Positions 7,000 to 34,141 of a stretch of DNA of 64,000 bases are shown here, piece after piece. The notes under the pieces were generated by a model. That model did not search any database, was not told the DNA's origin, and worked only from the letters and a program-made list of their open reading frames with translations. The translations under genes and the position numbers were made by a program. The stretch's first letter is position 1; each line of letters starts with the position of its first letter. The DNA comes from an uncultured Gammaproteobacteria bacterium (GTDB lineage: Bacteria > Patescibacteriota > Patescibacteriia > Magasanikbacterales > JBBTXJ01), in assembly GCA_964610305.1 (NCBI GenBank), contig CAZSVL010000001.1, positions 6,083 through 70,082 on the forward strand, written 5' to 3'.

Positions 7000-7880
7000 G
7001 ACACCAGCCAGTACTAACACAAGAGGTACTGGAGGGATTGCAGCTACAGCCAGGAATGGTTGTTGTTGATGGCACGCTAGGAGACGGTGGACACGCGCTA
7101 ACCATGCTTGAGCGCATAGGTCCAGAGGGAAAACTGATCGGCATAGACGCTGATTCAGAAGCCATCCTGCGAGCCAAAAAGATTTTATCAAAGCACAAAA
7201 ACGTGACCTTTGTGCGAGATAATTTCAAAAATCTCAGTCAGATTCTAAGGGGGGAGCTGGTAGATGCAATACTGCTAGATCTTGGGTGGTCTATGCCGCA
7301 ATTTAAAGAGCGCGGCAGGGGTTTTAGCTTTGAGGGTGATGAGCCGCTGGATATGCGGTTTGATCCAACAGCTGGAAAAACGGCAGCAGAGCTTATTGCA
7401 GGAGCAAAAGAATCAGAGCTGCAGCGAATACTTCATAAGTATGGAGAGGAGCCGCGGTCAAAAGCCATTGCAAAAGCTATCCACAAAGCTCGGCCCAAGA
7501 CATCAGCCAAGTTGGTAGAAGCGGTAATGTCCGTCTATAAGGGGCGTGGCAAAACGCATCCTGCTACGCGGACGTTTCAGGCAATCAGAATTTGGACTAA
7601 TGACGAGTTGCAGGTGCTAAAAGACGCGCTTGCAAGTGCACAGCAGTCTTTAAAACCGGGTGGCAAACTAGCCGTCATCAGCTTTCACTCGTTGGAAGAC
7701 AGAATAGTTAAACAATTTTTCAGGGGCTCAGACATCTTTATTCAGGCAGCTAAAAAGCCGATTACTGCAAACCCGCAAGAGCTAGCAGAAAATCCGCGCG
7801 CACGAAGCGCAAAGTTGCGAGTGGCCCAAAAAAAACATGCCCCGTTTGAAAGGAGTAAAAAAGTTTTGCAAAAAATGTAG
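6996..7880 (+). CDS. rsmH: 16S rRNA (cytosine1402-N4)-methyltransferase RsmH (MraW)
   Basis: HQPVLTQEVLEGL...VDGTLGDGGHA, SAM-binding motifs; dcw position after mraZ. Confidence 0.9.
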   Translation: MRHQPVLTQEVLEGLQLQPGMVVVDGTLGDGGHALTMLERIGPEGKLIGIDADSEAILRAKKILSKHKNVTFVRDNFKNLSQILRGELVDAILLDLGWSMPQFKERGRGFSFEGDEPLDMRFDPTAGKTAAELIAGAKESELQRILHKYGEEPRSKAIAKAIHKARPKTSAKLVEAVMSVYKGRGKTHPATRTFQAIRIWTNDELQVLKDALASAQQSLKPGGKLAVISFHSLEDRIVKQFFRGSDIFIQAAKKPITANPQELAENPRARSAKLRVAQKKHAPFERSKKVLQKM

Positions 7881-7884
7881 CCGT

Positions 7885-8181
7885 ATGGCAAGCATTTTAG
7901 GAAAAAGTAGCGTACTTAAAGGCCTCATGGTGGTCCTCATATTAGTATTGGGCGTGGGGTATATAGACATGATTAGCGATACGGCCACAAAAGGGTATGT
8001 GATTGCAGATTTAGAAGATACGCTGGTAGATCTTCAAAAGGAAAATCAACTACTCTCTATAGAAGTGGCAGAGTACTCTAGTATGAGCACGGTGCGCGAT
8101 CGCCTACAAAAATTAGGCATGATAGAGGCAGACGATGTTGAATATCTAACGCCTGTGGGTAGCGTGGCTAGCAGAAGATAG
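7885..8181 (+). CDS. FtsL-like / septum-formation-initiator-like bitopic membrane protein
   Basis: Short cytoplasmic tail, one TM (VLKGLMVVLILVLGVGYI), coiled-coil (LEDTLVDLQKENQLLSIEVAEY); sits after rsmH; the ATG at 7885 directly follows the rsmH stop. Confidence 0.5.
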   Translation: MASILGKSSVLKGLMVVLILVLGVGYIDMISDTATKGYVIADLEDTLVDLQKENQLLSIEVAEYSSMSTVRDRLQKLGMIEADDVEYLTPVGSVASRR

Positions 8182-8216
8182 AAGGACCGGCTTAAAAATG
8201 ATATAATAGCTCTACG

Positions 8217-8576
8217 ATGAGCTTTTTTGTTATAAAAAGACTTCTGTGGGAAACGGCTACCAGTCCGTTTGAAACAGCTGTTTGGTGGTATACCAAAGGG
8301 CTTTCTTCTGTTTCTCATTGGTATAGGTTTGTCATTGTTAGGGGTAATGCACGCTTGGGTGTATTGCTTTGGATAAAAAATATTTTTGTGCCCATGTACG
8401 GCCAGAGAGATTGGCAGGGCAGAGCCGTAAGTATTGGTGTGCGCATAGCGCAAATAATTGGGAGGGGTTTTGTTTTTATTTTATTGATAATAGGCATGAC
8501 GGCGCTGCTGCTGCTTTGGGTGGTGGGGCCGGTTCTTATTATTATGGGTTTGGTTAGTAGCTTACTTGGACTGTGA
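8217..8576 (+). CDS. hypothetical small membrane protein
   Basis: 119-aa ORF with a C-terminal TM run; its stop overlaps the GTG of the next gene (GTGA). Confidence 0.35.
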   Translation: MSFFVIKRLLWETATSPFETAVWWYTKGLSSVSHWYRFVIVRGNARLGVLLWIKNIFVPMYGQRDWQGRAVSIGVRIAQIIGRGFVFILLIIGMTALLLLWVVGPVLIIMGLVSSLLGL

Positions 8577-14112: not shown

Positions 14113-15525
14113 TTAGAATTGAGGAGTTTTACTTGGTTGTGGAGTATTAGGGGCGGGCATGTGTTGTCTTTCCATATTTCTAAAACTAGCACGTTCTGCG
14201 TCAAAAATCAACTTCACCATGCCGGTGGGGCCGTTTCTGTGCTTTGCAACGTGAACTTCTCCAATGCGGCGCTCATCTGGCGGAATATCCTCCAGCCGAT
14301 AGTTTCTGTCTGCCGCCTTTCGGTATAAGAATATCACAACGTCGGCATCTTGCTCAATGGATCCGCTATCTCTAAGGTGAGAGAGTTTTGGAATGGCTGG
14401 CTTTGTTGATTCAACGGCGCGGGATAGCTGAGAGAGTGCTAGAACCGGAATATTAAGCTCTCTGGCAATTCCCTTCAGGCCACGGCTTATTTCTGCAATT
14501 TCTTGCACACGATTCTCGCTGCTAGATTTGCCGCGTCCTTCCATAAGTTGCAAATAATCTACTACTATCATACTCAGACCATGCTCTGTTTGTAGTCTGC
14601 GCGCTTTTGCACGGATCTGCATTATATTTACATTGGGCGTGTCATCAATAAAAATAGGAGATTCAGAAAGGATACCCATGGCATGGCCAATTCTTGGGAA
14701 ATCATCGTCTTCTGGTTTGTCTGAGAGTCTGCCTGTCCTCATGCGCCATAAATCCACGTTGGCTTGCGCGCATAAAAGTCTGTCTACAAGCTGCTCTTTG
14801 CTCATTTCAAGTGAGAACATGCCAACTGCCTTTTTTTGTTTGACCGCAGCGTGGCGCATAATGTCTAGCGCAAGGCTGGTTTTTCCTACCGATGGACGCG
14901 CAGCCAGTATAACTAAGTCTGATTTTTGAAAACCTGCTAAAATGTTATCCAGCGCAACATAACCACTAGGGATGCCACGCATCTCTCCCTTGTTTTTATG
15001 CATTTCATCAATGCGCTCAAACGTGTTGGCCAAAACGCTGCGGATGGGGGTAAACGCAGCTTTAAGAAAATTAGATGAAACATTGAAAAGTTTTTGCTGT
15101 GCCTCATCTAAAATAGCCTCTAAATCATGCTCTTCATCAAATCCGAGCTCTGTAATTCTTGCTGATGCAGAAAGAAGCCTTCTAAGCGTAGCTTTTTTAT
15201 GTATAATACGCGCATAGTTGACGGCATTGGCTGTGCTGGGTACGCTGTTGGTAAGCTCTGCCAGATATGATTTTCCGCCAGAATCTTCTAGTTGCTTTTT
15301 TTCCTCTAGGCGAGCGCTTACGGTTAGCAAATCTACCGCTTCATTTTTTTCGGAAAGTTCTAAAATGATATTATAGATATTGCGGTGCTTTTCTAAATAA
15401 AAATCAGCCTCTTTTGCAACATCAAGTACTCTAAAGAGAATATCTTTGTCCAGCATAAGCGCGCCCAGCAGAGAGCGCTCTGCCTCTATATTTTGCGGCT
15501 GAATTTTTCCTGCTTGTTCTGGCAT
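14113..15525 (-). CDS. dnaB: replicative DNA helicase DnaB
   Basis: N-terminal ERSLLGALMLD, Walker A ARPSVGKTSLALD, RecA-like C-domain; 470 aa. Confidence 0.9.
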   Translation of the reverse strand: MPEQAGKIQPQNIEAERSLLGALMLDKDILFRVLDVAKEADFYLEKHRNIYNIILELSEKNEAVDLLTVSARLEEKKQLEDSGGKSYLAELTNSVPSTANAVNYARIIHKKATLRRLLSASARITELGFDEEHDLEAILDEAQQKLFNVSSNFLKAAFTPIRSVLANTFERIDEMHKNKGEMRGIPSGYVALDNILAGFQKSDLVILAARPSVGKTSLALDIMRHAAVKQKKAVGMFSLEMSKEQLVDRLLCAQANVDLWRMRTGRLSDKPEDDDFPRIGHAMGILSESPIFIDDTPNVNIMQIRAKARRLQTEHGLSMIVVDYLQLMEGRGKSSSENRVQEIAEISRGLKGIARELNIPVLALSQLSRAVESTKPAIPKLSHLRDSGSIEQDADVVIFLYRKAADRNYRLEDIPPDERRIGEVHVAKHRNGPTGMVKLIFDAERASFRNMERQHMPAPNTPQPSKTPQF

Positions 15526-17503: not shown

Positions 17504-18820
17504 TCATTTAAGAGGTCTCGCTAGAAGAGGAATTCCAATACGCTGCCTCAACGTTTCTCCTTTAAAGAGGGTTTTTTTACGCAGGCCAGACTCATGGCGT
17601 TCGTGCGTGCCGTCTGGTCCTTTTTGCACTTTTTGTGCGGCGCCCATAAAGACGGTGTGTTTGCCGTATTTTTTGTCTAAATCATCCACGGCGTCAAAAA
17701 TCCTATCTAATTTATGGGTGCGATTAGTGTCAGAGAATAAATCTAGCTGCACCGTTTTCTCATCTTTTAGTTTGTGAAGAGCTACGCTGGTGGATCTATA
17801 AAAGGTGTCTTTTTTAAAGAGTTTGTCATACGCTGCTCGTGCAGCGGCTATAACATCTACGGGGTTATTGCTGGCATGGGCCAATGTAACAGATGCGCCG
17901 CGTCTACTAAAGTTTTTTTTGTGGAGCGCAAAGGTAACCTTTGGGCATACTAAATTCATGCGCCTGGCTTTTATACACGCGTTTTCTATATTTCTACATA
18001 GATGCGCAAAGACCAGCTCTTTATCTGAGCTGCTAGGAGAGAAGGTTTTTTTCTTACGAATAGATTGGCGTGGCTTGGGTGGCGCATCGGTAACGGAGTA
18101 TATCAGCCGTCCGTTAAGCTCATGCCAAATTTCCTGGTGAGGTTTAGTAAGATAGCGCATGACCCAGTCTTCATCCTTTTTTGCGAGAGTTAGTGCGTCG
18201 CGAATGCCCATAATACGCAGATATTCATGTGTACGCGGACCAATGCCCCATATATCTTTTGGATGTGTGTCTTTAAGGAATTCATGAATTTTGCGGCCGG
18301 GAATTTGCGTGATGCCAAAAGGTTTTTTCCACTTGCTGGCCACTTTTGAAAGTACTTTTGTGGGAGCCAAACCTAAGGAAAACGTCATGCCCAGCTCTTT
18401 GTAAAGTGTATCCTGCAGCGTTTTAAGAATTTTAGGAAAGCTCATGCGTAGTGGTCTGCGCATGCCGGTGAGGTCCGCAAAGCATTCATCTATGCTGTAT
18501 TCTTCAACGGTGTGTGTGTACCGGCGGACAATATCAAAAAAACGCTGAGAAAAGAGGCTGTAACTTTCATAATCTGAAGGAACAAAAATAACATCGGGGC
18601 AGAGCTTTTTAATAGTGTGATATGGCATGGCGCGCGTAACGCCCGCGGCTTTTGCCTCATAAGAAATAGAGGCTGCAATACCGCGTTCTTTTCCGGTAAT
18701 AACGGGCTTACCCTTCCACGCAGGATTAAGCGCTTGCTCGCAAGAAGCAAAAAAAGCATCGCCATCTATATGCAAAATGGCGCGTGGATAAGAGCTAAGC
18801 ATGAGTGGTTGGGTAGGCAT
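17504..18820 (-). CDS. dinB: Y-family DNA polymerase IV (DinB)
   Basis: ILHIDGDAFFASCEQALNP catalytic N-terminus, SIDECFADLTG, little-finger region; start taken at the MPTQPL ATG. Confidence 0.85.
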   Translation of the reverse strand: MPTQPLMLSSYPRAILHIDGDAFFASCEQALNPAWKGKPVITGKERGIAASISYEAKAAGVTRAMPYHTIKKLCPDVIFVPSDYESYSLFSQRFFDIVRRYTHTVEEYSIDECFADLTGMRRPLRMSFPKILKTLQDTLYKELGMTFSLGLAPTKVLSKVASKWKKPFGITQIPGRKIHEFLKDTHPKDIWGIGPRTHEYLRIMGIRDALTLAKKDEDWVMRYLTKPHQEIWHELNGRLIYSVTDAPPKPRQSIRKKKTFSPSSSDKELVFAHLCRNIENACIKARRMNLVCPKVTFALHKKNFSRRGASVTLAHASNNPVDVIAAARAAYDKLFKKDTFYRSTSVALHKLKDEKTVQLDLFSDTNRTHKLDRIFDAVDDLDKKYGKHTVFMGAAQKVQKGPDGTHERHESGLRKKTLFKGETLRQRIGIPLLARPLK

Positions 18821-18915
18821 GTTTTCCACTTGACAGATGGTCGAAGGTGAAGTATATTGGATACACAAATGGCTTCGGCCTCCGAGACCTCGCACACCCG
18901 TGCGAGGATCGTTTT

Positions 18916-19314
18916 TTATATAAAACTTTTAATTTTTTTCTTTATTTCTTCGAATTCATCTTTTGGTAGCGTACGGATTTTTCTTAATAAACGTTTGGTG
19001 CTGATTAGTTTTAATTGCGAGAGGATAAGTGTGTAAGTCTTATTTTTGTATATCGTTTCATGATAATATTTTCCTTGTTTAATTTTAGTACTTAACGGGA
19101 TTACCCATAAAAGATGCGGATTAAAACCTTTTAGAACAAGGGCAGGTCTTTGAAATGAGGCACCTTTTCCGTCCTGCTCGTGGCCCAAGTTTACTCCAAA
19201 ACTACACCACCAAATTTCTCGTTTTTGATAGAAGATAGTAGATCCTTTAATTTTTTGTTGCAGTCGTATTTTTAGCTTTGTCCATTGAACTATCTCATTT
19301 ATTTTTTTACTCAT
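18916..19314 (-). CDS. PemK/MazF-family endoribonuclease toxin-like protein (132 aa) with no adjacent antitoxin
   Basis: REIWWCSFGVNLGHEQDGK...RPALVL, then IPLSTK and a C-terminal helix, parallel the PemK/MazF motifs (GEIWLVSLDPTAGHEQQGTRPVLIV...P.T...); lies between lexA and dinB. Confidence 0.6.
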   Translation of the reverse strand: MSKKINEIVQWTKLKIRLQQKIKGSTIFYQKREIWWCSFGVNLGHEQDGKGASFQRPALVLKGFNPHLLWVIPLSTKIKQGKYYHETIYKNKTYTLILSQLKLISTKRLLRKIRTLPKDEFEEIKKKIKSFI

Positions 19315-19319
19315 ACCAG

Positions 19320-19880
19320 CTAGTACTTCCGCACCACACCAATAACCACCGCTGCAATATTAAGCTCTTCTTCTGGAATTATATTTTCAAATGATTTATT
19401 TTCTGCTTGCAGATACACTTTTTTTCCAGACTTGCGTAGGCGTTTAAGGGTCCATGCGTGGTCCACCTCTGCAATAACAATGTCTCCGTCTGTGGCGCTG
19501 CGCCCGCGCTCTGCCAGCACCATATCTCCTGGCATAATGCCCGCCTCAGACATACTCATGCCCGATACTTTAAGCATAAACGTACTCTCTGGACGCTCCA
19601 GTAGCCATTGATCCAAGCTAAGGGTGTCCACGAGCTCTTCTTCTGCGGCAGAGGGAAATCCTGCTTCTATGGATCCTAAAACCGCCAGCTCTCCCAATCG
19701 ATGGGGGAGCAGCTTGCCTTGCGTGTCCTTTTTTAAAAACCCTTCATCTAAAAGTTTGCGTACCACCTTATAAGCCGCGTTTTTAGATTTAAACCCAAGC
19801 AGCTGCGCAATTTCACCGTAGCTGGGCATGCGTCTGTTTTTTTTATAAAACGAATGAATTTTATGAAGATGTTTTGGCAT
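19320..19880 (-). CDS. lexA: LexA repressor (S24 peptidase)
   Basis: N-terminal winged HTH (SYGEIAQLLGFKSKNAAYKVVRKL), AV^LG cleavage region, Ser (VSGMSMSEAG) and Lys (WTLKRL) catalytic dyad. Confidence 0.9.
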   Translation of the reverse strand: MPKHLHKIHSFYKKNRRMPSYGEIAQLLGFKSKNAAYKVVRKLLDEGFLKKDTQGKLLPHRLGELAVLGSIEAGFPSAAEEELVDTLSLDQWLLERPESTFMLKVSGMSMSEAGIMPGDMVLAERGRSATDGDIVIAEVDHAWTLKRLRKSGKKVYLQAENKSFENIIPEEELNIAAVVIGVVRKY

Positions 19881-23419: not shown

Positions 23420-24712
23420 TTACAGCAGATGTACAACGGGAGCTGTCATGTGGGTCTTATTTATGTGGTGATTTTCAACGAAAGGCCACTGTGCAAGCTG
23501 CCATCGTGGTATGTCGGGATAGATTATTGAGCAAAAATCAATGCCTGTATCTACTCTATAAGGCAATCCACTCATTTGAAAGCTGTATTCGCCGCTAGAG
23601 GCGCGCCATGGATGTTGGGCCATCATCATGATAATTTCCAGGCCGGCCGCATTAGGGCCTATATCTTGCTTTAGGATGCCGCCAGGATTTGCGCACGTGT
23701 CAACAATTGCCCACTGCAGTCCCGGAATCCATGGAGTTTTATGATGGGGCTGCAGATTTTTTAGGTCAAAGTCGCTAATAAGCGAGAATGCCGGCGGTCC
23801 GGTTGCCGAAAAGCTCCATATTCCGGGTTTGGGAAGATGTGCCCAGCGAAAGTATGCCTGCATGGTTCGATGATACCCAGATACGCCATCTTTGTCTGGG
23901 AGTCGCGTGATGAGGATTACACTTTTGCTTGGATCAGAGACAGCCGGTGGTTTCTTCAGCGATTCAAACCAATGATTTGGTATATCCCATTCATCTATTT
24001 CGGCTCGGTGCCTGATCAGTTCCGGAAGATGCTCTGCAAGAGTATCTTTCATGGCCTCTGCATCCTGATTGCCGCGTAGATTTTTTTCATCTAGGCTGAT
24101 GCCAACCTTTACAACGCGCAGCGCCACGTCTTTTGTAGGATCGTCTAAGGTGTGCACGATACGATTTCGTAAAGAGCGCATAGATAGGTGAATGTCGCGA
24201 TTGGCGTAAATGACCATTACGGCTTGGAAACGCTCTGCGGCATCTTCGCTAGAAGCCTGTTGGCGTAAATGTCTCCAATTTAGTTTTACAGGAGCGCTTG
24301 TATGTTGCGTATTTTGTTGCCGCTCAATGTCCCAACTCTCTGAAGGAACAATAAATTTGGGATTGTCAAAATAGCTACAAAGGCAGTGGTAGATTTCTAC
24401 TGCCTGCCTGGCCTCCTGTTGCGTGGGCTCGTAGGCGTTATGAACCACGTGGGCGCGAAAGTCAATAACCCAAGATAAGGCGTTTTTTGCAGTTTCGCTC
24501 CATCCACCAGCAAGTGTAGTGTGACCCACATCTACAAATGACTTAAACACGCTCATTTTAGGATCGGTGATCCACGCAATTGGATCGTCAACGGTATCTG
24601 CGTACTGTCTGCATAACGCCTGTTCAAAGAGCACGCTGGCCTTTACTACGGCGCGATAGCGGTGTGCTGGGTTGTCACTCTGAGCATTAGCTAGCAGTTG
24701 CTGCCATGTCAT
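23420..24712 (-). CDS. predicted defence/abortive-infection-type protein with two HEPN-like Rx4H motifs (N-terminal DUF4145-like domain) and an unassigned C-terminal domain
   Basis: FRAHVVHN and LRNRIVHT (R-x4-H) inside helical domains; N-terminal 120 aa resemble DUF4145; about 430 aa from the MTWQQLL start. Confidence 0.45.
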   Translation of the reverse strand: MTWQQLLANAQSDNPAHRYRAVVKASVLFEQALCRQYADTVDDPIAWITDPKMSVFKSFVDVGHTTLAGGWSETAKNALSWVIDFRAHVVHNAYEPTQQEARQAVEIYHCLCSYFDNPKFIVPSESWDIERQQNTQHTSAPVKLNWRHLRQQASSEDAAERFQAVMVIYANRDIHLSMRSLRNRIVHTLDDPTKDVALRVVKVGISLDEKNLRGNQDAEAMKDTLAEHLPELIRHRAEIDEWDIPNHWFESLKKPPAVSDPSKSVILITRLPDKDGVSGYHRTMQAYFRWAHLPKPGIWSFSATGPPAFSLISDFDLKNLQPHHKTPWIPGLQWAIVDTCANPGGILKQDIGPNAAGLEIIMMMAQHPWRASSGEYSFQMSGLPYRVDTGIDFCSIIYPDIPRWQLAQWPFVENHHINKTHMTAPVVHLL

Positions 24713-24810
24713 TTTGCCTCCTTTTTGTCTGTGGTGAGTGTATGCGGTTTTTGGGGGGTTGTCAAGGGGTTTTTGTGGCTTGTCGGTTTCTTCGTGATAT
24801 AATATTCGGC

Positions 24811-25479
24811 ATGGAGGGTGCCCAAAAATACACAATAAAGCAGCTACCGCGTGTAGAAAGGCCGCGGGAGAAGTTGATTGCCTATGGGCCGGGGAAGCTT
24901 TCTAACTCTGAACTTTTGGCGATTTTGTTGCGGACGGGGAAGAGGGGGGAGAATGTTGTTGAGATGGCGCGGAAGATTTTGCAGCGGTTTGGTAGCGGCG
25001 GATTGCATAATGCGTCTTTTAAAGATTTGGTGCAATATGTCGGGCTCGGTCCGGCAAAGGCATGTGAGATTGTGGCGTGTTTTGAGCTTGGAAAACGTTT
25101 GCTCAAAGACAAAAAGACGGTTTTGATAATGTCCGCGCAAGACGTTTGGTAGCAGGTGGCGGATATTCGAGGCAACAAAAAAGAGCATTTTGTAGTTTTT
25201 TATCTGGATACGCGGAATCAGCAGATTAAAAGGGAGATAATTTCAGTCGGAACGTTAAACGCCAGCCTGGTACACCCACGTGAAGTATTCGAACCGGCAA
25301 TCCGTTACAACGCCGCACACGTTATCGTCGCGCACAATCATCCGTCAGGAGATCCGGAGCCGTCACAAGAAGATTTCACTTTAACTCGGCGGCTTGTGGA
25401 TGCGGGGAAAATTCTAGGAATTGCACTGTTGGATCACGTGATTATGACAAAAGAATTTTATTTTAGCATAAAATTATAA
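24811..25479 (+). pseudogene. radC: radC (RadC/UPF0758 JAB-domain protein) interrupted by one in-frame TAG (25150-25152)
   Basis: N-half LSNSELLAILLRTGKRGENVVEMARKIL (HhH) and C-half HFVVFYLDTRNQ...HPREVF...AHNHPSGDPEPS (JAMM motif) are in the same frame, separated only by TGG-TAG-CAG. Confidence 0.6.
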
Positions 25480-25481
25480 TT

Positions 25482-25510
25482 TTGTTACCTATTGACATGA
25501 TAGGTAACAA
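25482..25510 (+). promoter_or_regulatory. 11-bp perfect inverted repeat TTGTTACCTAT-N7-ATAGGTAACAA overlapping a TTGACA -35 box; putative antitoxin operator/promoter
   Basis: TTGACA 25492-97, 17-nt spacer, TATACT about 25515-20, then ATG 25530. Confidence 0.5.
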
Positions 25511-25529
25511 AATATATACTTACTACATT

Positions 25530-25793
25530 ATGAAACAGACAGATAAGCCGTATCTTTCAACCGCGGAGCTCGCAGATTTGCTTGGCATAAGTAGGGTAGA
25601 GGTTTTTCGAAAAATTAAAAAAGGTCTTATTCCCGCTGAAAAAAAAGGTAGGAATTTTTTGATTCTTAAAAAAGATATTGAAAATTTGTTGAGTGGTACA
25701 TTGACCGCTGGTAAAAAGCGTCAAATCGATATTGCGGTTGATAAGACTTTAGCGGAATATGGAGAGACTCTAAAGCTACTTGGGCAAGAATAG
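25530..25793 (+). CDS. HTH (excisionase/MerR-like HTH_17) DNA-binding protein; putative antitoxin
   Basis: LSTAELADLLGISRVEVFRKIKKGLIPAEKKGRNFLI helix-turn-helix; 1-nt gap to the Doc gene. Confidence 0.55.
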   Translation: MKQTDKPYLSTAELADLLGISRVEVFRKIKKGLIPAEKKGRNFLILKKDIENLLSGTLTAGKKRQIDIAVDKTLAEYGETLKLLGQE

Positions 25794-25794
25794 C

Positions 25795-26226
25795 ATGGCT
25801 AAAATATCGTCTATAACAGTTGCAGATATAGAGCATCTTGCTCATCGGCTTGCTAAAAAGATGTTTGAGTGGAACGAGCCGATTCCTGATTTTGGGACGC
25901 GTTACCCTAATAAGCTTGAAAGCTGTATAGCTGTGCCATTTCAGACATTTTCGAAGCGGATATTATATAAGGGTCTTTTGGAAAAAGCAGCCATACTTTT
26001 CTATCTGATGATCAAAAACCATCCGTTTCAGAATGGTAACAAGCGTATTGCCATGACGACGTTGTTTGTTTTTCTTCATATAAATGGCAAGTGGTTGGAG
26101 GTTGATAATCAGAAATTGTATAATTTTGCAAAGTGGGTTGCTGCGAGTGACGCAGAAGTAAAAGATGCGACCGTGTTAGCGATAAAGGATTTCTTGAAAA
26201 AGCATCTGGTTAATTTAGAGAAATAA
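25795..26226 (+). CDS. Fic/Doc-family toxin (death-on-curing type)
   Basis: HPFQNGNKRIAMTTLFVFLHINGK matches the Fic/Doc core HxFx(D/N)GNKR. Confidence 0.75.
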   Translation: MAKISSITVADIEHLAHRLAKKMFEWNEPIPDFGTRYPNKLESCIAVPFQTFSKRILYKGLLEKAAILFYLMIKNHPFQNGNKRIAMTTLFVFLHINGKWLEVDNQKLYNFAKWVAASDAEVKDATVLAIKDFLKKHLVNLEK

Positions 26227-26229
26227 TTT

Positions 26230-27678
26230 ATGTTCGAACAATCATTTAAAAATATTGATAACGCGCTCCGTAAAGACGCGGGGGTGAGCAGTGAGCTTGA
26301 TTATGTGGAGCAAACCTCATGGGTTTTGTTTTTGAAATATCTTGATGATTTGGAGCGGGACAAGGAGAAAGAGGCTGCGCTTGCTGGGAAGACGTATGAG
26401 TATATTATTGATCCAAAGTATAGGTGGGAGGCGTGGGCTGTGCCAAAGACGGCTGATGGCAAGTTGGATCATAATACCGCGCTCTCTGGGGATGATCTTA
26501 AGGACTTTGTGGATCATGAGTTGTTTCCGTATTTAAAAAAGTTCAAAAGTGAGGCAGAAAGTCCGGATACCATTGAATACAAAATCGGGGAGATTTTTAG
26601 TGAGCTTAAGAATAAAATACAAAGCGGGTATACGTTGCGTAGCATTTTGGATATTGTTGACGGCATGCGTTTCCGATCGCAAGAGGAAAAGCATGAGCTC
26701 TCTCATCTCTACGAGGGCAAAATCAAGAACATGGGCAATGCTGGCAGAAACGGTGGGGAATACTACACGCCGCGTCCGCTTATTAAGACGATTGTCAAAG
26801 TTGTTGCTCCAGAGATTGGCAACACAATTTATGATGGTGCTGTTGGCTCAGCGGGTTTTTTGGTGGAAGCGTTTGAGTATTTGAAAGAAAGCAAAGATCT
26901 TTCAGTTAAAGATTTTGAAACACTTCAGAAAAAAACTTTTTACGGCAAAGAAAAGAAATCGCTTGCGTATATCATCGGCATCATGAATATGATTTTGCAC
27001 GGCATTGAGGCGCCGAACATTATCCACACAAACACACTTGCAGAAAACATCGCTGATTTTCAAGAAAAAGATCGATACGATATTGTCCTTGCTAATCCGC
27101 CGTTTGGAGGAAAAGAGCGCAAAGAGGTGCAGCAGAATTTTCCAATCAAAACCGGCGAGACTGCTTTTCTGTTCCTCCAACATTTCATAAAAATCCTCAA
27201 AGCTGGAGGTCGGGGTGGTGTGGTTATAAAAAACACTTTCCTTTCCAATGCCGATAACGCCGCCATTTCACTCCGCAAAATGCTTCTAGAAAGCTGCAAA
27301 CTTCATACCGTTTTAGATTTGCCCGGCGGAACATTTTTGGGCGCCGGAGTAAAAACTGTTGTCCTTTTTTTCGAAAAAGGCACACCAACAAAAAAAATCT
27401 GGTACTACCAACTAAACCTCGATAGAAACCTAGGCAAAACAAACCCACTCAACGAAAAGGACCTTGCAGAATTTGTAGAACTACAAAAAACCAAAGCCGA
27501 CTCTGAAAATTCCTGGACTTTGGATGTGAAAGATATTGATCCGCGGATTTTTGATCTGTCAGTAAAGAATCCGAATGGTGGTGGGGAGATTGAGTTGAGA
27601 AGTCCAGAGGAGATTTTGGAGGAGATGAGGGGGTTGGATAAGGAGAGTAGTCGTATTTTTATCGATATTGAAGAATAG
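26230..27678 (+). CDS. hsdM: type I restriction-modification N6-adenine DNA methyltransferase subunit HsdM
   Basis: N-terminal HsdM_N, SAM motif I, motif IV LANPPFGGKE; 482 aa. Confidence 0.9.
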   Translation: MFEQSFKNIDNALRKDAGVSSELDYVEQTSWVLFLKYLDDLERDKEKEAALAGKTYEYIIDPKYRWEAWAVPKTADGKLDHNTALSGDDLKDFVDHELFPYLKKFKSEAESPDTIEYKIGEIFSELKNKIQSGYTLRSILDIVDGMRFRSQEEKHELSHLYEGKIKNMGNAGRNGGEYYTPRPLIKTIVKVVAPEIGNTIYDGAVGSAGFLVEAFEYLKESKDLSVKDFETLQKKTFYGKEKKSLAYIIGIMNMILHGIEAPNIIHTNTLAENIADFQEKDRYDIVLANPPFGGKERKEVQQNFPIKTGETAFLFLQHFIKILKAGGRGGVVIKNTFLSNADNAAISLRKMLLESCKLHTVLDLPGGTFLGAGVKTVVLFFEKGTPTKKIWYYQLNLDRNLGKTNPLNEKDLAEFVELQKTKADSENSWTLDVKDIDPRIFDLSVKNPNGGGEIELRSPEEILEEMRGLDKESSRIFIDIEE

Positions 27679-27684
27679 GATTTT

Positions 27685-28737
27685 ATGATTTCTGATTCCT
27701 CGCTAAAGGAGTTGCTGAGGCTCAAGAGAGGTGGATATTTATACCATCGTGAAAGTCAAACCTTGGAATTCAAAGAGTCGTTTAGTCTTAGTGCGTTAGC
27801 AGATTACTTTCGCGATTTTGCTGCTTTTGCAAATAACAAGGGTGGTTATTTGGTTTTTGGCGTTAAGGATAGTCCAAATACGCTCGTCGGGCTGACCCCT
27901 AAATCTCAAAAGCAATTTGAAAAAGTAGATCCGGAAAAAATTTCCGGGTACCTTCTAGATATTTTTTCTCCAAATATCGATTGGCTTCAGAGGTCTATTA
28001 AAATTGCCTCTAAGCATTACGGTGTTTTTTACATACACGAAGCTAAAGTTAAGCCCGTGATAGCCAAAAAAGATGAGGGTAAAGACCAGGTCATAAAAAA
28101 TGGGGAAGTATATTACCGGTATGGTGGGAGAACGCAGAAGATACAATTTGCCGAGTTGGAAAATATTATTCAGAAAAGGTTAGAGTCACAGACACAGCAG
28201 TGGCAGAATCTCATTTCTAAAATTGCCAAGGCGGGCCCTTCGAATGCCGCGGTACTCGATACCGAAAGAGGTTTGATAGAAAAAAGTGATACACAGGTTC
28301 TGCTAATGGATGACAAGCTTGCCAAGAAGATAAAATTTGTAAAGGAGGGTGAATTTAGCGGCAAGGAAGGTGATTTGGCGTTACGGCTGGTTGGCGATGT
28401 GCTGCCTGTGAATCCCGTTGAGATTACAAAAATCAAGAAACAAAGACTCACTGAGGAATATCCGTACTCAGCTTTAGAATTGGTCGAGGAAGTTAGAAAG
28501 AAGTTGTCCGGGGCAATGCAAGGTGATGTATGGAAAGTGATTGCGGAAAACAGCCTAAAAAGTAACACAGATTATTCTGCTTACAATTTTCGCAACAAAA
28601 GGCAAGAGGATAAGTTCAAGGAATCTGGAGAATTACCTAAATCAATTCCCAATATATATAATGATGATGCGGTTGATTTCATAGTAAAAGTTTTGAAAGA
28701 CAAAAAGAATGAAAATAGAGAAGAAACAAAAAAATAA
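27685..28737 (+). CDS. AlbA_2 / Schlafen-like (divergent AAA, putative DNA-binding) domain protein inserted between hsdM and hsdS
   Basis: RESQTLEFKESFS...AFANNKGGYLVFGVKD matches the AlbA_2 (PF04326-type) N-terminal signature; C-terminal 200 aa unassigned. Confidence 0.55.
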   Translation: MISDSSLKELLRLKRGGYLYHRESQTLEFKESFSLSALADYFRDFAAFANNKGGYLVFGVKDSPNTLVGLTPKSQKQFEKVDPEKISGYLLDIFSPNIDWLQRSIKIASKHYGVFYIHEAKVKPVIAKKDEGKDQVIKNGEVYYRYGGRTQKIQFAELENIIQKRLESQTQQWQNLISKIAKAGPSNAAVLDTERGLIEKSDTQVLLMDDKLAKKIKFVKEGEFSGKEGDLALRLVGDVLPVNPVEITKIKKQRLTEEYPYSALELVEEVRKKLSGAMQGDVWKVIAENSLKSNTDYSAYNFRNKRQEDKFKESGELPKSIPNIYNDDAVDFIVKVLKDKKNENREETKK

Positions 28738-29842
28738 CTGGCAAACAAAAAAGCTTGGAGATGTGATCAAGTTAGAATACGGAAAGCCGCTCCCAAAATC
28801 TAAAAGGAGATTAGATGGTCTTTATCCAGTGTATGGCGCTAATGGAGTAAAAGCCAAAAGTGATGAGTATTATTTTTACAAACCGAGCATTATTGTTGGT
28901 AGAAAAGGTACGGCTGGAGCATTAACCTTGACAGAGGAAAGATTTTGGCCTCTAGATGTTACGTATTTCGTGACGTTTGATGAAAAAAAGTATGATTTGA
29001 AGTTTCTTTTTGGTCTTTTGAGCACACTGGATTTGCCGCGTTTTGCGAAGGGTGTGAAGCCTGGAATAAATAGAAATGATATCCACGCATTGAGCGTCAA
29101 AGTACCGACCCTCCCAGAACAAAAACGCATTGTAAAAATTCTTGATCAGACGTTTGAAAAAATAGAAAGAGCAAAAGAGAATACGCAAAAGAATCTACAA
29201 AATGCACGAGAGCTTTTTGAGTCATATTTACAGGAGGTTTTTGCAAATCCGGGGGAGGGTTGGGAAGAGAAACGGTTGGGCGCGGTGTATGATGTGCGTG
29301 ATGGGACGCATGCCTCACCAAAATATCACAAAGAAGGATATGCTCTGATTACTTCAAAAAATTTAAAGAATGATACTTTAAATTTTGATAAAATAAGATA
29401 TATTTCAGAAAAAGATTATTTGAAGATAAATGAAAGGAGTAAGGTTGATGTTGGGGACGTTTTGTTTGCCATGATTGGTACAATTGGTAATCCTGTTGTA
29501 ATTAAAGATGAGCCTAATTTTGCGATAAAGAATGTTGCTCTGTTTAAGGTTCCACAAGATCAGGATAGTTTTTTCTTAAAGTACTACCTGGATTCTAAAT
29601 TTGTGGGAGATAAAATGTCCAAGGAGGCAAAAGGAACTACACAAAAGTTCGTTGGGTTGGGGTATCTAAGAAATTTTGAAATTAAAATACCCAAGAAGCC
29701 AACACAGAAAACCATCGTCAATAAACTTGACTCTCTCTCAGAAAAAACCAAAAAACTAGAATCAATCTATCAAAAAAAGCTGGATAATTTGGAAGAGTTG
29801 AAGAAGTCTGTGCTCAAGAAGGCGTTTAGTGGGGAATTATGA
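28709..29842 (+). CDS. hsdS: type I restriction-modification specificity subunit HsdS (two target-recognition domains)
   Basis: Duplicated TRD plus conserved helices (LPEQKRIVKILD..., C-terminal LKKSVLKKAFSGEL). Confidence 0.85.
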   Translation: MKIEKKQKNNWQTKKLGDVIKLEYGKPLPKSKRRLDGLYPVYGANGVKAKSDEYYFYKPSIIVGRKGTAGALTLTEERFWPLDVTYFVTFDEKKYDLKFLFGLLSTLDLPRFAKGVKPGINRNDIHALSVKVPTLPEQKRIVKILDQTFEKIERAKENTQKNLQNARELFESYLQEVFANPGEGWEEKRLGAVYDVRDGTHASPKYHKEGYALITSKNLKNDTLNFDKIRYISEKDYLKINERSKVDVGDVLFAMIGTIGNPVVIKDEPNFAIKNVALFKVPQDQDSFFLKYYLDSKFVGDKMSKEAKGTTQKFVGLGYLRNFEIKIPKKPTQKTIVNKLDSLSEKTKKLESIYQKKLDNLEELKKSVLKKAFSGEL

Positions 29843-30072
29843 GAATTAATCTATAAATATATGAACCAAAATAAAACATGCCAGACTTGTGGGGTGGAAT
29901 TAAAGCACTCTAAATTCGCCAGAAGAACGAATGAGGGTCAGGATTTCGTGAGCGCACAAGAGAATCTTGCTTGCCGAAACTATCCAGAATGTCCAAGGGC
30001 AGAGAAAGAAACGGAAGGGGATATGGATTTTGATTGACAAAATCGTAGTTTTGTGCTAAGTTAAGGCGATTT

Positions 30073-32403
30073 ATGAACGAAGCCGAAACAAGAGCAGAAT
30101 ACACTGACCCCAAGCTAAAGGAGGCTGGCTGGGGTGAAATTGAAGGATCGAAAGTTTTTCGGGAGTTTTATATTACTGAAGGGCGGATTCAGGCTGGTGG
30201 GGGTCGTGCAAATCCGGAGAGGGCTGATTATGTTTTGGCATACAAAAATCAAAAGCTTGCGGTGATTGAGGCAAAGAGCGATGAGGAGGAGCCAACAGAG
30301 GGTGTGCAGCAGGCAAAGAGTCAGGCAGAGAAACTGCACTTGGATTATGCCTATTCAACAAACGGCAAAAAGATTTATGAGATTTCAATGGAGACGGGGA
30401 GAGAAGATTTTGTTGATTCGTTTCCTGGTCCGGAAGAGCTGTGGAATAGGATAAACGCAAAATCTAATGAGTGGAAAGAAAAGTTTTCTTCTGTGCCTTT
30501 TGAAAATGTGGGCGGCAGAATGGGTGCGCGGTATTATCAGGAAATTGCGGTGAATAAAACAATGGATGCAATTGCAGATGATAAAAAGCGAATACTCCTT
30601 ACGCTTGCAACGGGGACGGGAAAAACGTTTATTGCCTTTCAGATTGCGTGGAAGCTTTTTCATTCGAGATGGAATTTGAAACGCGATGGAAAGCGTCGGC
30701 CGCGGATTCTGTTTTTAGCTGATAGAAACATCTTGGCAGATCAGGCGTTTAATGCGTTTTTTGCTTTTCCAGAAGATGCTTTGGCGCGTATCAGCCCGCT
30801 GGATATTCGCAGACAAGGAGCGGTGCCCACAAACGCAAATATTTTTTTCACAATCTTTCAGACCTTCATGAGTGGGCCAAAGGGCACGCCGTACTTTGGC
30901 GATTATCCGTCTGATTTTTTCGATTTTATTGTTATTGATGAATGTCACCGTGGTGGCGCAAATGATGAATCAAACTGGCGTGCTATCATGGAGCATTTTT
31001 CTCCCGCAGTGCAACTTGGTCTTACAGCAACACCAAAGAGAAAGGATAACATCGATACATACAGATATTTTGGCGAGCCAGTGTATATTTATTCGCTCAA
31101 AGAGGGTATTAACGATGGCTTTTTAACGCCATTTAAGGTAAAGCGTGTTCAAACAACGATTGATAAGTATAGGTATGTGTCTGATGATCAAATTATTGAA
31201 GGAGAGATTGAGGAGGGGAAGCTTTATGAAGAGCCAGATTTTAATAGGATTATTGAGATTAAAGAGCGGGAAGCAAAGCGTGTGCGTGTTTTGTTGGATG
31301 AGATAGATCAGAATGAGAAGACCATTGTTTTTTGCGCCACGCAAGATCATGCGCTGGCAGTTCGTGATTTGATCAATCAGTATAAAGAGAGTAAACAACC
31401 AAACTATTGTGTGCGTGTGACAGCTAATGATGGCGTGCGTGGGGAACAGTATTTGCGAGAGTTTCAGGATAATGAAAAAACAATTCCAACGATTTTGACT
31501 ACATCACAAAAGCTGTCAACCGGAGTGGACGCGCGGAATGTGCGCAATATTGTTTTGATGCGGCCGGTTAATACCATGGTTGAGTTTAAACAGATTGTGG
31601 GGCGTGGAACGCGGCTTTTTGATGGTAAAGAATACTTTACTATTTTCGATTTTGTTGATGCGTATAAACATTTTTCTGATCCGGAATGGGATGGTGAGCC
31701 TATTGATGAGACTGCGGAGAAGAAGTATAAGAAGCCCAAAAAGGGTGCGGGAGAAGTAGCTGATCGTGCTGAACGAGAGTACGGCGAGGAGCAAGAGAAA
31801 AGAAAGAAAATCAAAATTAAATTGCGTGATGGGAAAGAGCGCGAAATTCAGCATATGATCTCCACGTCATTTTGGAGTGCAGACGGTACACCAATTTCTG
31901 CAGAGGAGTTTTTGCGCAACATGTACGGGGAGTTGACTGAGTTATTCAAAAATGAGGCGGAGCTGAGGAAGATTTGGTCTAACCCAACTACACGTAAGAC
32001 ATTTTTGGATCAGATTGCAGAGCATGGATACGGTAAAGATGTGCTAGAAACTTTGCAAAAAATGATTGACGCGCAAGAAAGTGATCTGTTTGATGTGCTG
32101 GCGTATGTTGCTTTTGCGATGCCGCCGATTACACGTGAGGAGCGCGTTGCCGGTTCTAAGAAGAAGATTTTTGATGGCGTGGATGAAAATCAGCAAGAAT
32201 TCTTAGAATTTGTTCTCGCTAAGTATATTGACGATGGTGTGACGGAGTTGGCTGAAGATAAGTTGCCGATTTTGTTAAATTTGAAATACCATGCAATCGC
32301 GGACGCTGAAAAAGAAATGGGTGGCGTTGAGCAAATTCGATCTACGTTTTTTACTTTTCAAAAGAAGTTGTACAAAAAGGCGCGATTGCGTCAAGTGGCT
32401 TAA
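30073..32403 (+). CDS. hsdR: type I restriction enzyme R subunit HsdR
   Basis: N-terminal NEAETRAEYTDPKLKEAGW nuclease domain, helicase motif I LATGTGKT, motif II DECHRG, motif VI QIVGRGTR. Confidence 0.9.
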   Translation: MNEAETRAEYTDPKLKEAGWGEIEGSKVFREFYITEGRIQAGGGRANPERADYVLAYKNQKLAVIEAKSDEEEPTEGVQQAKSQAEKLHLDYAYSTNGKKIYEISMETGREDFVDSFPGPEELWNRINAKSNEWKEKFSSVPFENVGGRMGARYYQEIAVNKTMDAIADDKKRILLTLATGTGKTFIAFQIAWKLFHSRWNLKRDGKRRPRILFLADRNILADQAFNAFFAFPEDALARISPLDIRRQGAVPTNANIFFTIFQTFMSGPKGTPYFGDYPSDFFDFIVIDECHRGGANDESNWRAIMEHFSPAVQLGLTATPKRKDNIDTYRYFGEPVYIYSLKEGINDGFLTPFKVKRVQTTIDKYRYVSDDQIIEGEIEEGKLYEEPDFNRIIEIKEREAKRVRVLLDEIDQNEKTIVFCATQDHALAVRDLINQYKESKQPNYCVRVTANDGVRGEQYLREFQDNEKTIPTILTTSQKLSTGVDARNVRNIVLMRPVNTMVEFKQIVGRGTRLFDGKEYFTIFDFVDAYKHFSDPEWDGEPIDETAEKKYKKPKKGAGEVADRAEREYGEEQEKRKKIKIKLRDGKEREIQHMISTSFWSADGTPISAEEFLRNMYGELTELFKNEAELRKIWSNPTTRKTFLDQIAEHGYGKDVLETLQKMIDAQESDLFDVLAYVAFAMPPITREERVAGSKKKIFDGVDENQQEFLEFVLAKYIDDGVTELAEDKLPILLNLKYHAIADAEKEMGGVEQIRSTFFTFQKKLYKKARLRQVA

Positions 32404-32406
32404 AAT

Positions 32407-33099
32407 ATGAAAAACAAAGAAGGACTTTGGAAACTTTCGCCCAGCGGACTGTACGGATTCACCGAATGCAAATCCTGTTTTTGGGTAGATAATCACTACA
32501 GACGCGCGCCGTCTTTGCCTTGGCTTTTGAATAGCGCGATGGATAGTATTTTAAAGCATCGGTATGATAAGTATCGCAAGAAAAATACGTTTCCGCCGGA
32601 GGTTTTGGAGCTTGAGGAAGAGGGGATTATTCCGTTTGCGGATTTGGATACTTTGAATGAATGGCGTGAGAAGGTGAATGTTTTGCGTGTTGTAGATGAA
32701 AAAGCCAGTTATGAATTGCGCGGCAAAATAGATGATGTTTTGGTGGAAAAAGATGGTCGGCTTGTTCCGGCTGACTATAAATCTTCCGGAAACGCGCCAA
32801 AGGAGGATAAGCAGAAATATTATATAGATCAGCTGACGGCGTATGGTTTTATGTTTAAAAAACATGGCCATGAAGTTTCTGATCGCGCTTACTTGCTTCA
32901 TTATTTCCCGCGCGACAAAACCAACCCATCAACAAAAGTACAATTTGACGGCCACGTGGATTTTGTAAAGATAGATTTAAAAAGGTTTGAGAAAAAGTTA
33001 AAAGACATGGTGAAATTGCTTAATGGCGAATATCCCGGGCACAACCCTGAGTGCAACAAGTGCGCGTATTATGAGGGGCGTGGGGAGCGGGTGAAGTAG
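32407..33099 (+). CDS. PD-(D/E)XK nuclease-like protein with N- and C-terminal CxxC pairs (Cas4/DUF83-like), directly downstream of hsdR
   Basis: GKIDDVLVEKDG...ADYKSS (D...D/ExK), TECKSC and ECNKC cysteine pairs; 3-nt gap from hsdR. Confidence 0.5.
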   Translation: MKNKEGLWKLSPSGLYGFTECKSCFWVDNHYRRAPSLPWLLNSAMDSILKHRYDKYRKKNTFPPEVLELEEEGIIPFADLDTLNEWREKVNVLRVVDEKASYELRGKIDDVLVEKDGRLVPADYKSSGNAPKEDKQKYYIDQLTAYGFMFKKHGHEVSDRAYLLHYFPRDKTNPSTKVQFDGHVDFVKIDLKRFEKKLKDMVKLLNGEYPGHNPECNKCAYYEGRGERVK

Positions 33100-33118
33100 A
33101 TCAAAACACCAAGCTTTT

Positions 33119-33162
33119 CTTGAGATCCCGGATATTTTGCTTCACAAAATTCCGGGAGACAG
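33119..33162 (-). repeat. solo type-1 hairpin repeat (variant ...CCGGGAGACAG)
   Basis: CTTGAGATCCCGGATATTTTGCTTCACAAAATTCCGGGAGACAG; followed by a terminator-like hairpin at 33176-33203. Confidence 0.65.
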
Positions 33163-33202
33163 GTGCGCTACGAATAAAAAAGCGGTCCGAAGACCGCTCA
33201 CT

Positions 33203-34141
33203 TTACTCAGGCCGCTTGTTTGCAGCCATAAATTCTGTAACTGTGGCTATTATGCCTGCAGACCCGACGGGGTTATTTTTTTCTAGCTCTGCAATGACAT
33301 TGCTTGCTCCGCGGTGGTCTCCTAGGCATAACAAGTACATGATCAGGGCTTGGTAGAACTCTACCATGGATGTTCTGTTTACAAAGGGTCGGCCGGCGTA
33401 GTCTAGGTATTCAAGAGGTTTGCCCATTTTGTCTGAAAATGATTCGTGATAATTGATCCGATTTGTGTACGTATAGGCGATGGTTCCAAGAGGATCACCA
33501 ATGTGCACTGGTGCCTGCAGATCCTCCCTGTATGCGGATATGGCCGATTCAACAAGGAACAGTCCGGCAAGCGCATCCAATAGTCTGATAATCATACGCT
33601 CTATGCTAATGCGTAGTGGTGGTTTTTCTGGCAACAGAGAAATGGTGTGGTCAATGCAGCTTATGTAGCAGTCAGTCAATCCGTTGTATGCATTGCGCAA
33701 ATCAGCAAGGGTGGAGTTGTGGGTGATACTGCCCGATGCAGCAGAAACCTCTAGATGTTGAGCGTCACGGCTCTGAAAGAAGGCTGTGCCTATGAGTCCT
33801 TCAACACTTCTTATGAACACGGCTTGTGTTTCTGTAAACAGGCGCAGGGCAAAAAGAGAATCTCTGCCAAGAGTGGCTCTTACGCTCTCTACGGCATCCC
33901 ACATTGCTTCTTTTTTTCTACTATCTGCCCTATCTCTGTGGAGTCCAAAGTGATGCAGTGTTTCATCTGGCGCAACCCTAAGCTGTTCAATAAGAAGCAT
34001 GGCCACGTTATATTCTGGCAGCGCTCGTCCAAGCATTTGCGCAATGCATATGTTCATCATCTGCACAGCTAGCCTTTCTGACCCTTCTGGCATAAGGACA
34101 CGCGGCTTTTCCTTAAGTATCCGGGAAAGTCTGTCTGACAT
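33203..34141 (-). CDS. hypothetical protein (312 aa)
   Basis: Long ORF, coding-like composition; no assignable motif. Confidence 0.4.
   Translation of the reverse strand: MSDRLSRILKEKPRVLMPEGSERLAVQMMNICIAQMLGRALPEYNVAMLLIEQLRVAPDETLHHFGLHRDRADSRKKEAMWDAVESVRATLGRDSLFALRLFTETQAVFIRSVEGLIGTAFFQSRDAQHLEVSAASGSITHNSTLADLRNAYNGLTDCYISCIDHTISLLPEKPPLRISIERMIIRLLDALAGLFLVESAISAYREDLQAPVHIGDPLGTIAYTYTNRINYHESFSDKMGKPLEYLDYAGRPFVNRTSMVEFYQALIMYLLCLGDHRGASNVIAELEKNNPVGSAGIIATVTEFMAANKRPE

Follow-up and report, generated by a model that had tools for sequence, protein, structure and literature searches.

A prokaryotic Schlafen gene within a type IB restriction-modification operon: a putative second-line antiphage RNase with a portable C-terminal module

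Introduction

Prokaryotic Schlafens (pSlfn) were described in 2025-2026 as antiphage tRNases (PMC12330615, PMC13056530, PMC13552941, PMC13462974). Perez Taboada et al. (Nat Microbiol 2026) reported trigger-dependent tRNA cleavage and phage defence for RorSlfn5 and EcoSlfn7, of the pSlfn5 and pSlfn7 types respectively; RorSlfn5 cuts the anticodon arm and its trigger is the T5 tail-assembly chaperone (PMC13056530). CbCash responds to cyclic tetra-adenylate, becomes active by forming filaments and cleaves tRNA in the T-loop (PMC13462974), and a Schlafen of Enterococcus lactis, whose C-terminus has no annotation, works by abortive infection (PMC13552941). Also, candidate defence genes have been found embedded in type I restriction-modification (R-M), BREX and DISARM loci (bioRxiv 10.1101/2024.01.29.577857; PMC12839542). 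Here we analyze a stretch of 64,000 nucleotides (nt) of contig CAZSVL010000001.1, from here on the window, in which a pSlfn gene of 350 amino acids (aa), named gene X, lies between hsdM and hsdS of a type I R-M operon. Its product is related to the antiviral, tRNA-cutting Schlafens of humans. Our best reading is that X is probably a self-contained phage-defence nuclease of the second line, with its own regulatory part, that is carried and co-expressed by the R-M operon and would cut tRNA in response to a trigger.

Like RorSlfn5 and EcoSlfn7, X is a single-gene pSlfn that joins an E-x4-(E/D)-x-K site to an accessory domain. However, their accessory domains are an Ig-like sensor or DUF262, to which the two C-terminal parts of X, here called region M and C-module, are dissimilar; X would probably count among the '1,020 unannotated fusions' of Perez Taboada et al. 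The R-M-associated Schlafens of 'Cluster 4' (PMC13462974) resemble X by description, with a catalytic Schlafen domain, an unannotated C-terminus and an R-M locus; those homologues were picked near defence systems, whereas in the unselected X family only about 15-20% are R-M-linked. In this sense, the X family is of an already published kind, the R-M-associated pSlfn antiphage tRNases. In the literature searched we did not find the size and conservation of the family, its embedding rate, or the sharing of the C-module with DUF3644/HEPN and channel-like proteins. How R-M-associated bacterial Schlafens are activated is posed as a question in PMC13462974, and the X family constitutes a compact case of it. 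Being of small size, very widespread and highly conserved, with an intact site and a small reused C-module, it is suited to the finding of a trigger, and it allows a test of whether embedding in type I operons is functional or mere co-transfer. Additionally, the names 'ATP-binding protein' and 'RNA-binding domain-containing protein', under which such genes are filed, would mask a probable toxic defence RNase.

The anticodon nuclease PrrC is masked by the type I enzyme EcoprrI and unmasked by the Stp peptide of T4. Its gene sits between hsdS and hsdR and not between hsdM and hsdS, unlike X in the hsdM-X-hsdS layout that an earlier note on this DNA had likened to the prr/rlo loci. X shares with PrrC and RloC (prr and rlo loci) the occurrence of a putatively latent RNase gene within a type I operon, with a tRNA target that is proven for PrrC and presumed for X. 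PrrC, built from an ABC ATPase and a HEPN-type nuclease, is found almost only inside R-M operons; X, in contrast, is a Schlafen from a family that is mostly solo.

Results and Discussion

X has a Schlafen nuclease domain with an intact active site

The open reading frame (ORF) at 27685-28737 was recovered between hsdM and hsdS with exactly the coordinates that the earlier note had given, and both of its junctions are those of an in-operon gene. Its translation contains HRESQTLEFKESF ... NNKGGYLVFGVKD, the signature on which that note had based an AlbA_2 or Schlafen-like assignment. The profile search in Pfam upholds the assignment, as PF04326 (SLFN_AlbA_2) covers aa 23-153 of X over profile positions 1-117 of 118, with E=6.3e-21 and 75.5 bits for a gathering cut-off of 25.3 bits, a score far beyond what chance would be expected to give. 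The "ESxTLEFK" string quoted in the note corresponds in X to the Schlafen catalytic motif, E23-x4-E28-x-K30. This motif was defined for prokaryotic Schlafens as E-x4-(E/D)-x-K by Perez Taboada et al. (PMC13056530), and the E-D-K triad of CbCash has been established structurally (PMC13462974).

Across 79 aligned homologues, R22, E23, E28, F29, K30 and E31 never vary. Of the genes taken at full length from the genome loci, 63/63 keep E23, E28 and K30, and 61/63 keep D62, which is N in the other 2. The family profile of X retrieved rat Slfn13 (5yd0) from the sequences of the PDB at 7e-5, with weaker matches to SLFN11 and CbCash. E23, E28 and K30 align with ESQLVEFK of SLFN11 and ESASIEFK of rat Slfn13, and D62 with the second D of FGVDD in 5yd0. 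The catalytic triad of rat Slfn13 is, we assume, E205/E210/D248, and by the chain numbering offset the residue aligned with D62 would presumably be D248.

The AlphaFold2 (AF2) model of X has a mean predicted local distance difference test score (pLDDT) of 67, with block means of about 65-87 over aa 1-120 and 46-59 over aa 121-150. Foldseek matched this model to 3lmm (DIP2311, 4.9e-5), SLFN11 7zel (8.9e-5), SLFN5 7q3z (9.4e-5), 2kyy and SLFN14 9nyy, the whole set with E from 5e-5 to 8e-4 and probability 1.00; the match to 3lmm extends over some 169 columns of the alignment, roughly as long as the N-terminal domain of X. X thus resembles the nuclease domains of mammalian SLFN11 and SLFN13 in fold and in the E/E/K(+D) site, but these have a two-lobed core followed by a linker and a helicase, whereas in X one AlbA_2 unit is followed by C-terminal parts unrelated to theirs. 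On every computational membership test, X fits a pSlfn that is predicted to be catalytically competent. The proposal of the earlier note that X is an RNA or tRNA nuclease module gains from the experiments on other prokaryotic Schlafens, which are trigger-activated antiphage tRNases (PMC13056530, PMC13462974); for X itself RNase activity, a tRNA target, dependence on a trigger and a defence phenotype are what homology would predict.

A different possibility is that X is not a nuclease in vivo but a regulator that binds DNA or RNA ('COG2865 transcriptional regulator / ATP-binding protein'), for example one that controls expression of the R-M operon. This would suit the older source names of X homologues ('ATP-binding protein', 'predicted HTH transcriptional regulator', 'RNA-binding domain-containing protein'), a C-terminus that is possibly winged-helix-like, and the fact that some mammalian Schlafens are non-catalytic. 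However, E-x4-E-x-K and D62 hardly vary over more than 15 phyla, and Pfam detected no ATPase or HATPase_c_4 domain in X, nor any HATPase domain at E<=0.01, unlike in COG2865-type proteins, which combine AlbA_2, HATPase_c_4 and wHTH. Additionally, the occurrence of the C-module on HEPN RNases and a channel suits the sensor of a toxic effector and not an operon-specific regulator, and most members of the family lie away from R-M genes. We regard a regulatory role as very improbable.

X is an in-operon gene of a complete type IB system

The hsdM stop codon and the start of gene X are 6 nt apart, AGGA stands 4 nt before the ATG, and the 3' end of X overlaps hsdS by 29 nt. This short gap and this overlap mark X as part of the operon rather than as a loose insertion, and they argue for co-expression of X with hsdM and hsdS. 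In relatives, the junction of X and hsdS is either a 14-nt overlap (loci L084 and L085) or a 7-nt gap (L087). The R-M operon that surrounds X is complete and of the EcoAI type (type IB), as indicated by its hsdR, which reaches 839 bits on the EcoAI/FtnUII profile NF046051 (cut-off 550 bits). In the window hsdS and hsdR are separated by a gap of 230 nt. The coordinates of these features and of the parts of X are collected in Table 1.

Table 1. Features of gene X and of the surrounding R-M operon (positions of the window)
Feature	Position	Strand	Basis
Gene X, pSlfn protein, 350 aa (including stop codon)	27685..28737	+	ATG-started ORF; PF04326; homologues
Schlafen/AlbA_2 nuclease domain, aa 23-153	27751..28143	+	Pfam, Foldseek, family profile
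Catalytic motif E23-S-Q-T-L-E28-F-K30 (E-x4-E-x-K)	27751..27774	+	Conservation; alignment to SLFN11 and rat Slfn13
D62, third acidic active-site residue (FGVKD)	27868..27870	+	Alignment to 5yd0; conservation
Region M, aa 156-244, long helix and beta-rich stretch	28150..28416	+	Search of C-half; low AF2 confidence
C-module, aa 245-340, portable domain of about 95 aa, putative sensor/regulatory part	28417..28704	+	C-half search; fold of C-half
Overlap of X 3' end with hsdS 5' end, 29 nt	28709..28737	+	ORF coordinates
hsdM, type I methyltransferase subunit	26230..27678	+	PF02384 N6_Mtase 2.4e-61, HsdM_N; PADLOC MTase_I 3.8e-158
hsdS, specificity subunit	28709..29842	+	PF01420 Methylase_S in two target-recognition halves; PADLOC Specificity_I 6.7e-63
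hsdR, EcoAI/FtnUII family	30073..32403	+	NCBIfam NF046051 839 bits, aligned 1-768/768; ResIII and EcoEI_R_C domains
Cas4-like PD-(D/E)XK nuclease gene, accessory cargo of the R-M operon	32407..33099	+	PDDEXK_1 8e-13; cas4 families below threshold
RadC-like JAB, HTH_17 (excisionase/Mad1-like) and Fic/Doc genes, directly 5' of hsdM	25156..26226	+	Pfam, NCBIfam, PADLOC

The C-terminal half contains a module shared with other toxic effectors

The earlier note had left about 200 aa beyond AlbA_2 without assignment, and in agreement, aa 154-350, a conserved non-Schlafen region, gave no at-threshold match in Pfam or NCBIfam. A search of aa 160-350 against 1.84 billion representatives returned 443 matches, which divide the C-terminal half into region M and C-module. 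Region M lies downstream of an AlbA_2 domain in every case checked (Pfam, three longer proteins), and it also matches independently in proteins of 440-520 aa whose C-termini are without the X C-module. With the C-half folded alone, the C-module reached a pLDDT of 81-95, and its predicted elements follow the order helix, short strand, two helices, strand, helix, strand and long helix. A comparison of the sequence profile of the C-half with PDB sequences found nothing, the alignment of the C-module did not conserve PD-(D/E)XK-type acidic residues, and the best Foldseek match of the C-half among viral structures was an unnamed protein at 1.4e-3. The C-module is the most variable part of X across loci, with a mean pairwise identity of 47%, compared with 59% for region M and 62% for the nuclease domain.

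We found this module at the end of DUF3644/HEPN proteins of the EC042_2821 type: P0169 (E=3.9e-16, 46% identity), P0172, P0177, P0181, P0198 and P0237, with identities between X and the DUF3644 proteins of 38-46%. These proteins correspond to the PADLOC candidate PDC-S19, and their effector is a HEPN RNase, with R-x4-H invariant in the alignment, whereas that of X is a Schlafen RNase. HEC-08, a related DUF3644 HEPN protein and validated defence gene, has zinc-finger C-terminal domains and is without the X C-module. The module also ends P0168, a K+-channel-like protein of 259 aa with an Ion_trans_2 pore domain and a GYGD filter. As one small module stands on three unrelated toxic effectors, it shows the pattern of a regulatory or sensor domain. 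Matches of 140-200 aa that looked like new effectors were rejected, being 5'-truncated DUF3644 proteins, and a second match in a 198-aa protein of L102 was discarded as marginal, in a low-complexity membrane protein.

What such a sensor might bind leads to a further alternative, in which the ligand of the C-terminal part would be a product of the cutting of invading DNA by the type I enzyme or another nuclease, such as an end or single-stranded DNA. Its binding would turn the RNase on, so that restriction would be amplified to translation arrest. Weickert et al. offered this very speculation for R-M-associated Schlafens, by analogy with the activation of SLFN11 by single-stranded DNA (PMC13462974). 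The predicted topology of the C-module is compatible with it, and the top Foldseek matches of the C-half in the PDB, although non-significant, are winged-helix DNA binders. Moreover, the C-module weakly matches a 'REase-like' Pfam domain, PF18740 (EC042_2821-like), below threshold at 17.2 bits for a cut-off of 24.9 (E=0.0079, positions 4-91 of 97), and 5 of 14 C-module carriers match this domain independently, also weakly (best E 0.0062). A generic nucleic-acid cue suits the high conservation across phyla, and solo X genes are compatible with it as any nuclease could supply the signal. However, no DNA-binding domain matches the C-module significantly in structure or in sequence, and a protein ligand would fit the present data as well as DNA. 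A sensor of restriction products seems unlikely to us.

On another reading, the C-module would be a portable sensor of the restriction state, on Schlafen RNase, HEPN RNase and K+ channel alike. It could be a domain for DNA-like ligands that DNA-mimic anti-restriction proteins capture, or one for the DNA ends that the translocating type I enzyme leaves. X would in that case be the Schlafen counterpart of PrrC or PARIS, lodged time and again in type I operons for a functional reason rather than by hitch-hiking; we hold this reading to be rather improbable.

The X family is widespread and highly conserved

More than 1240 X homologues were found in the search, of which the best 120 are all of about 340 aa and cover at least 95% of X with 59-78% identity. 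A scan of one genome per species gave 79 X-family loci in more than 15 phyla, at 45-65% identity over the full length. The family occurs in Pseudomonadota, Bacteroidota, Bacillota, Actinomycetota, Deinococcota, Spirochaetota and Verrucomicrobiota, and further in Planctomycetota, Chloroflexota, Acidobacteriota, Gemmatimonadota, the candidate phyla radiation and Melainabacteria. Such a distribution at these identities indicates a family that horizontal transfer has carried widely and that is strongly constrained. X as phage or plasmid cargo was rejected, since the family is absent from phage genomes and has only 4 distant plasmid matches.

A full-length homologue with 60% identity was also found on a 1984-bp contig binned as Heimdallarchaeota (L004), which is either a horizontal transfer into archaea or a binning contaminant. 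Some homologues are disrupted: the one in L068 (6001-8730) is interrupted by an insertion of about 1.7 kb with an ORF, and those of L066, L071, L073 and L077 have frameshifted or split reading frames. These are consistent with the decay of a costly gene.

Most members of the family are not linked to type I R-M

Using iterated HsdM/S/R profiles, type I genes were found within 6 kb of X in 16 of 74 genome loci and were absent from the other 58. A metagenome scan added about 68 X loci with about 9 of them R-M-linked, a rate that is a lower bound as many contigs are shorter than 3 kb. Taken together, the family is embedded in type I R-M at a rate of about 15-20%. According to Pfam, the immediate upstream neighbours (65 genes) include Methylase_S (4), ResIII (2) and N6_Mtase (1), and the immediate downstream neighbours (62 genes) include ResIII (5), HSDR_N (4), Methylase_S (3) and N6_Mtase (1); the remainder is a mixture of integrases, resolvases, TIR, SEFIR, DarT and housekeeping genes. 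When the flanking proteins were clustered all against all, only HsdM (12 loci), HsdS (11) and HsdR (9) recurred, with the next cluster in 6 loci. Ribosomal-protein genes have been reported to have only 0.13-0.19 defence genes, all kinds counted, in the 10 kb around them (PMC13056530); by an order-of-magnitude estimate, X occurs in type I operons far above chance.

The R-M-linked layouts vary, including M-X-R, S-X-R, M-S-R-X, R-M-?-X-S, M-?-S-X(-R), X-S-M and X-?-M-S, and so do the hsdR families beside X, with the EcoAI type in the window and HindI/T1RH-like_C in others. In a neighbour-joining tree, R-M-linked and solo X genes are interleaved. With about 80% of the family solo, a variable junction and an interleaved tree, the family cannot depend on an HsdMS antidote encoded in cis. 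In this sense, the X family appears to be an autonomous one-gene module. In three R-M-linked, Bacteroidota-type loci (L034, L038 and L051, about 7000-10900), X is followed by several opposed hsdS copies, which suggests phase-variable hsdS shufflons next to X.

The earlier note had proposed that the type I enzyme licenses or neutralises X, in the manner of PrrC or as a module that senses restriction alleviation. In such a PrrC- or PARIS-like arrangement, HsdM2S1 or R2M2S1 would hold X in check, or X would monitor the complex, and an anti-restriction factor would fire it. Several observations are in line with this: X is tightly placed between hsdM and hsdS, its closest relatives keep the linkage to hsdS, and members of the family turn up in type I operons that belong to different families. 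Also, DUF3644/HEPN proteins have been reported in R-M operons (PMC3710099), and we found those with the C-module in the arrangement S-[HEPN-C](-R) in 2 of 10 metagenome loci (L090 and L095). Schlafen RNases, moreover, were proposed as 'backup suicidal effectors' in BREX loci (PMC12839542). Nevertheless, licensing is at odds with the high proportion of members without a type I gene within 6 kb, the variable junction, and the absence from the tree of an R-M-specific subfamily. The almost exclusive R-M embedding of PrrC has no counterpart in the X family, and no PrrC- or RloC-type domain (ABC ATPase, HEPN) was found in X in Pfam, NCBIfam or PADLOC, where its matches were PF04326 and weak ones to PDC-S50 and PDC-S19. 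The proposal was thus not borne out by the distribution of the family, and we consider licensing by the type I enzyme quite unlikely.

X was acquired by a basic type IB operon

The closest annotated relatives of the window's hsdM, with 65-71% identity, are on plasmids of Methylomagnum, Vibrio and Calothrix, where each of the three operons has a 4-nt overlap of hsdM and hsdS and nothing inserted between them. As these nearest type IB operons among those sampled lack an insert at the hsdM-hsdS junction, X is seen as an acquisition when set against the basic operon. They carry other cargo, between hsdS and hsdR or after hsdR, namely a Phd/PIN toxin-antitoxin, a YhcG/DUF1016 nuclease and DUF6615. 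In related type IB operons the YhcG/DUF1016 gene lies between hsdS and hsdR, and DUF6615 after hsdR. A 344-aa gene of Calothrix between hsdS and hsdR was considered as a relative of X and rejected, as it is the YhcG/DUF1016 nuclease. The use of type IB operons as landing pads, with other cargo at other junctions, agrees with the 'guilt-by-embedding' observation made for type I R-M (bioRxiv 10.1101/2024.01.29.577857).

The closest relatives of X itself, with 75-78% identity, occur in three independent contexts that all have hsdS downstream: X-hsdS-Fic-hsdR, whose hsdR is 75% identical to that of the window, X-hsdS, and X-GHKL ATPase-hsdS. The survey for the same insertion that the earlier note had suggested therefore gives a divided answer, since the nearest type IB hsdM-hsdS junctions sampled are without it, while the family is present in other type I operons and the closest relatives keep X next to hsdS or just upstream of it. 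In L086, a 647-aa GHKL-type ATPase gene (HATPase_c_3, 1194-3137) lies between X and hsdS as a second embedded gene at this junction.

A putative second-line RNase carried by the R-M operon

A mechanism for X can be proposed by analogy with RorSlfn5, CbCash and the Enterococcus lactis Schlafen. The N-terminal Schlafen/AlbA_2 domain would hold a metal-dependent RNase site formed by E23, E28, K30 and D62, intact as judged by sequence. This RNase would remain latent until the C-terminal part binds an infection cue, and its activation would probably involve a change of oligomeric state. Once active, X may cut tRNA, and possibly rRNA, which would stop translation and limit the yield of phage. In this way X would act behind restriction as a second line of defence, and the R-M operon would provide it with transcription, co-transfer and a permissive landing site, but with no antidote.

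Several points weigh against this proposal of a self-contained nuclease. The X-hsdS unit is stable within the subclade of the window, in all three independent contexts. The link with type I systems, far above chance, is mostly in-operon and on the same strand, so some functional coupling is possible, and solo X genes could depend on R-M systems encoded elsewhere in the genome. For a sensor of a phage protein the family is unusually conserved across phyla, and a conserved cue, such as a nucleic-acid structure, fits better. The sensor role of the C-module is deduced from domain swapping; its fusion to a K+ channel is seen in one 50%-identity cluster representative (P0168), in which mis-assembly is possible, and Foldseek found no significant match of the C-half in the PDB (best E=1.1).

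Other genes and sequence features around the operon

The Cas4-like gene begins 3 nt past the hsdR stop codon and is far from any CRISPR array. Upstream of hsdM, the head-to-tail genes are a truncated RadC-like JAB (107 aa), HTH_17 and Fic/Doc (148 aa), the last of which matches PDC-S23 of PADLOC at 2.5e-20. L084, a close relative of the operon, has instead a Fic gene of 345 aa between hsdS and hsdR. The G+C content is 0.37-0.44 across 25-33 kb and 0.45-0.49 in the immediate flanks (20-25 and 33-34 kb).

At the start of the HTH_17 gene we observed an inverted repeat with a 14-bp stem, ATTTTGTTACCTAT...ATAGGTAACAAAAT (25479-25520), that overlaps a sigma-70-like site, TTGACA-17-TATACT, with 11 of 12 consensus positions. 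By its sequence, it looks like an operator/promoter for an HTH_17-Fic/Doc-hsdM transcription unit. A promoter and terminator scan of 24800-33400 found no more sites than in shuffled sequence.

Divergent from the R-M operon, a 471-aa gene (23420-24835, minus strand) has weak matches to DUF4145 (E=0.004), to CARF-HEPN of PADLOC (6e-5) and to SspF, and may be another gene of the defence island. About 5 kb 5' of the island there is a pair of UmuC-like (IMS) and UmuD-like (Peptidase_S24) genes (17504-19880, minus strand), and a DnaB gene is found at 14113-15525.

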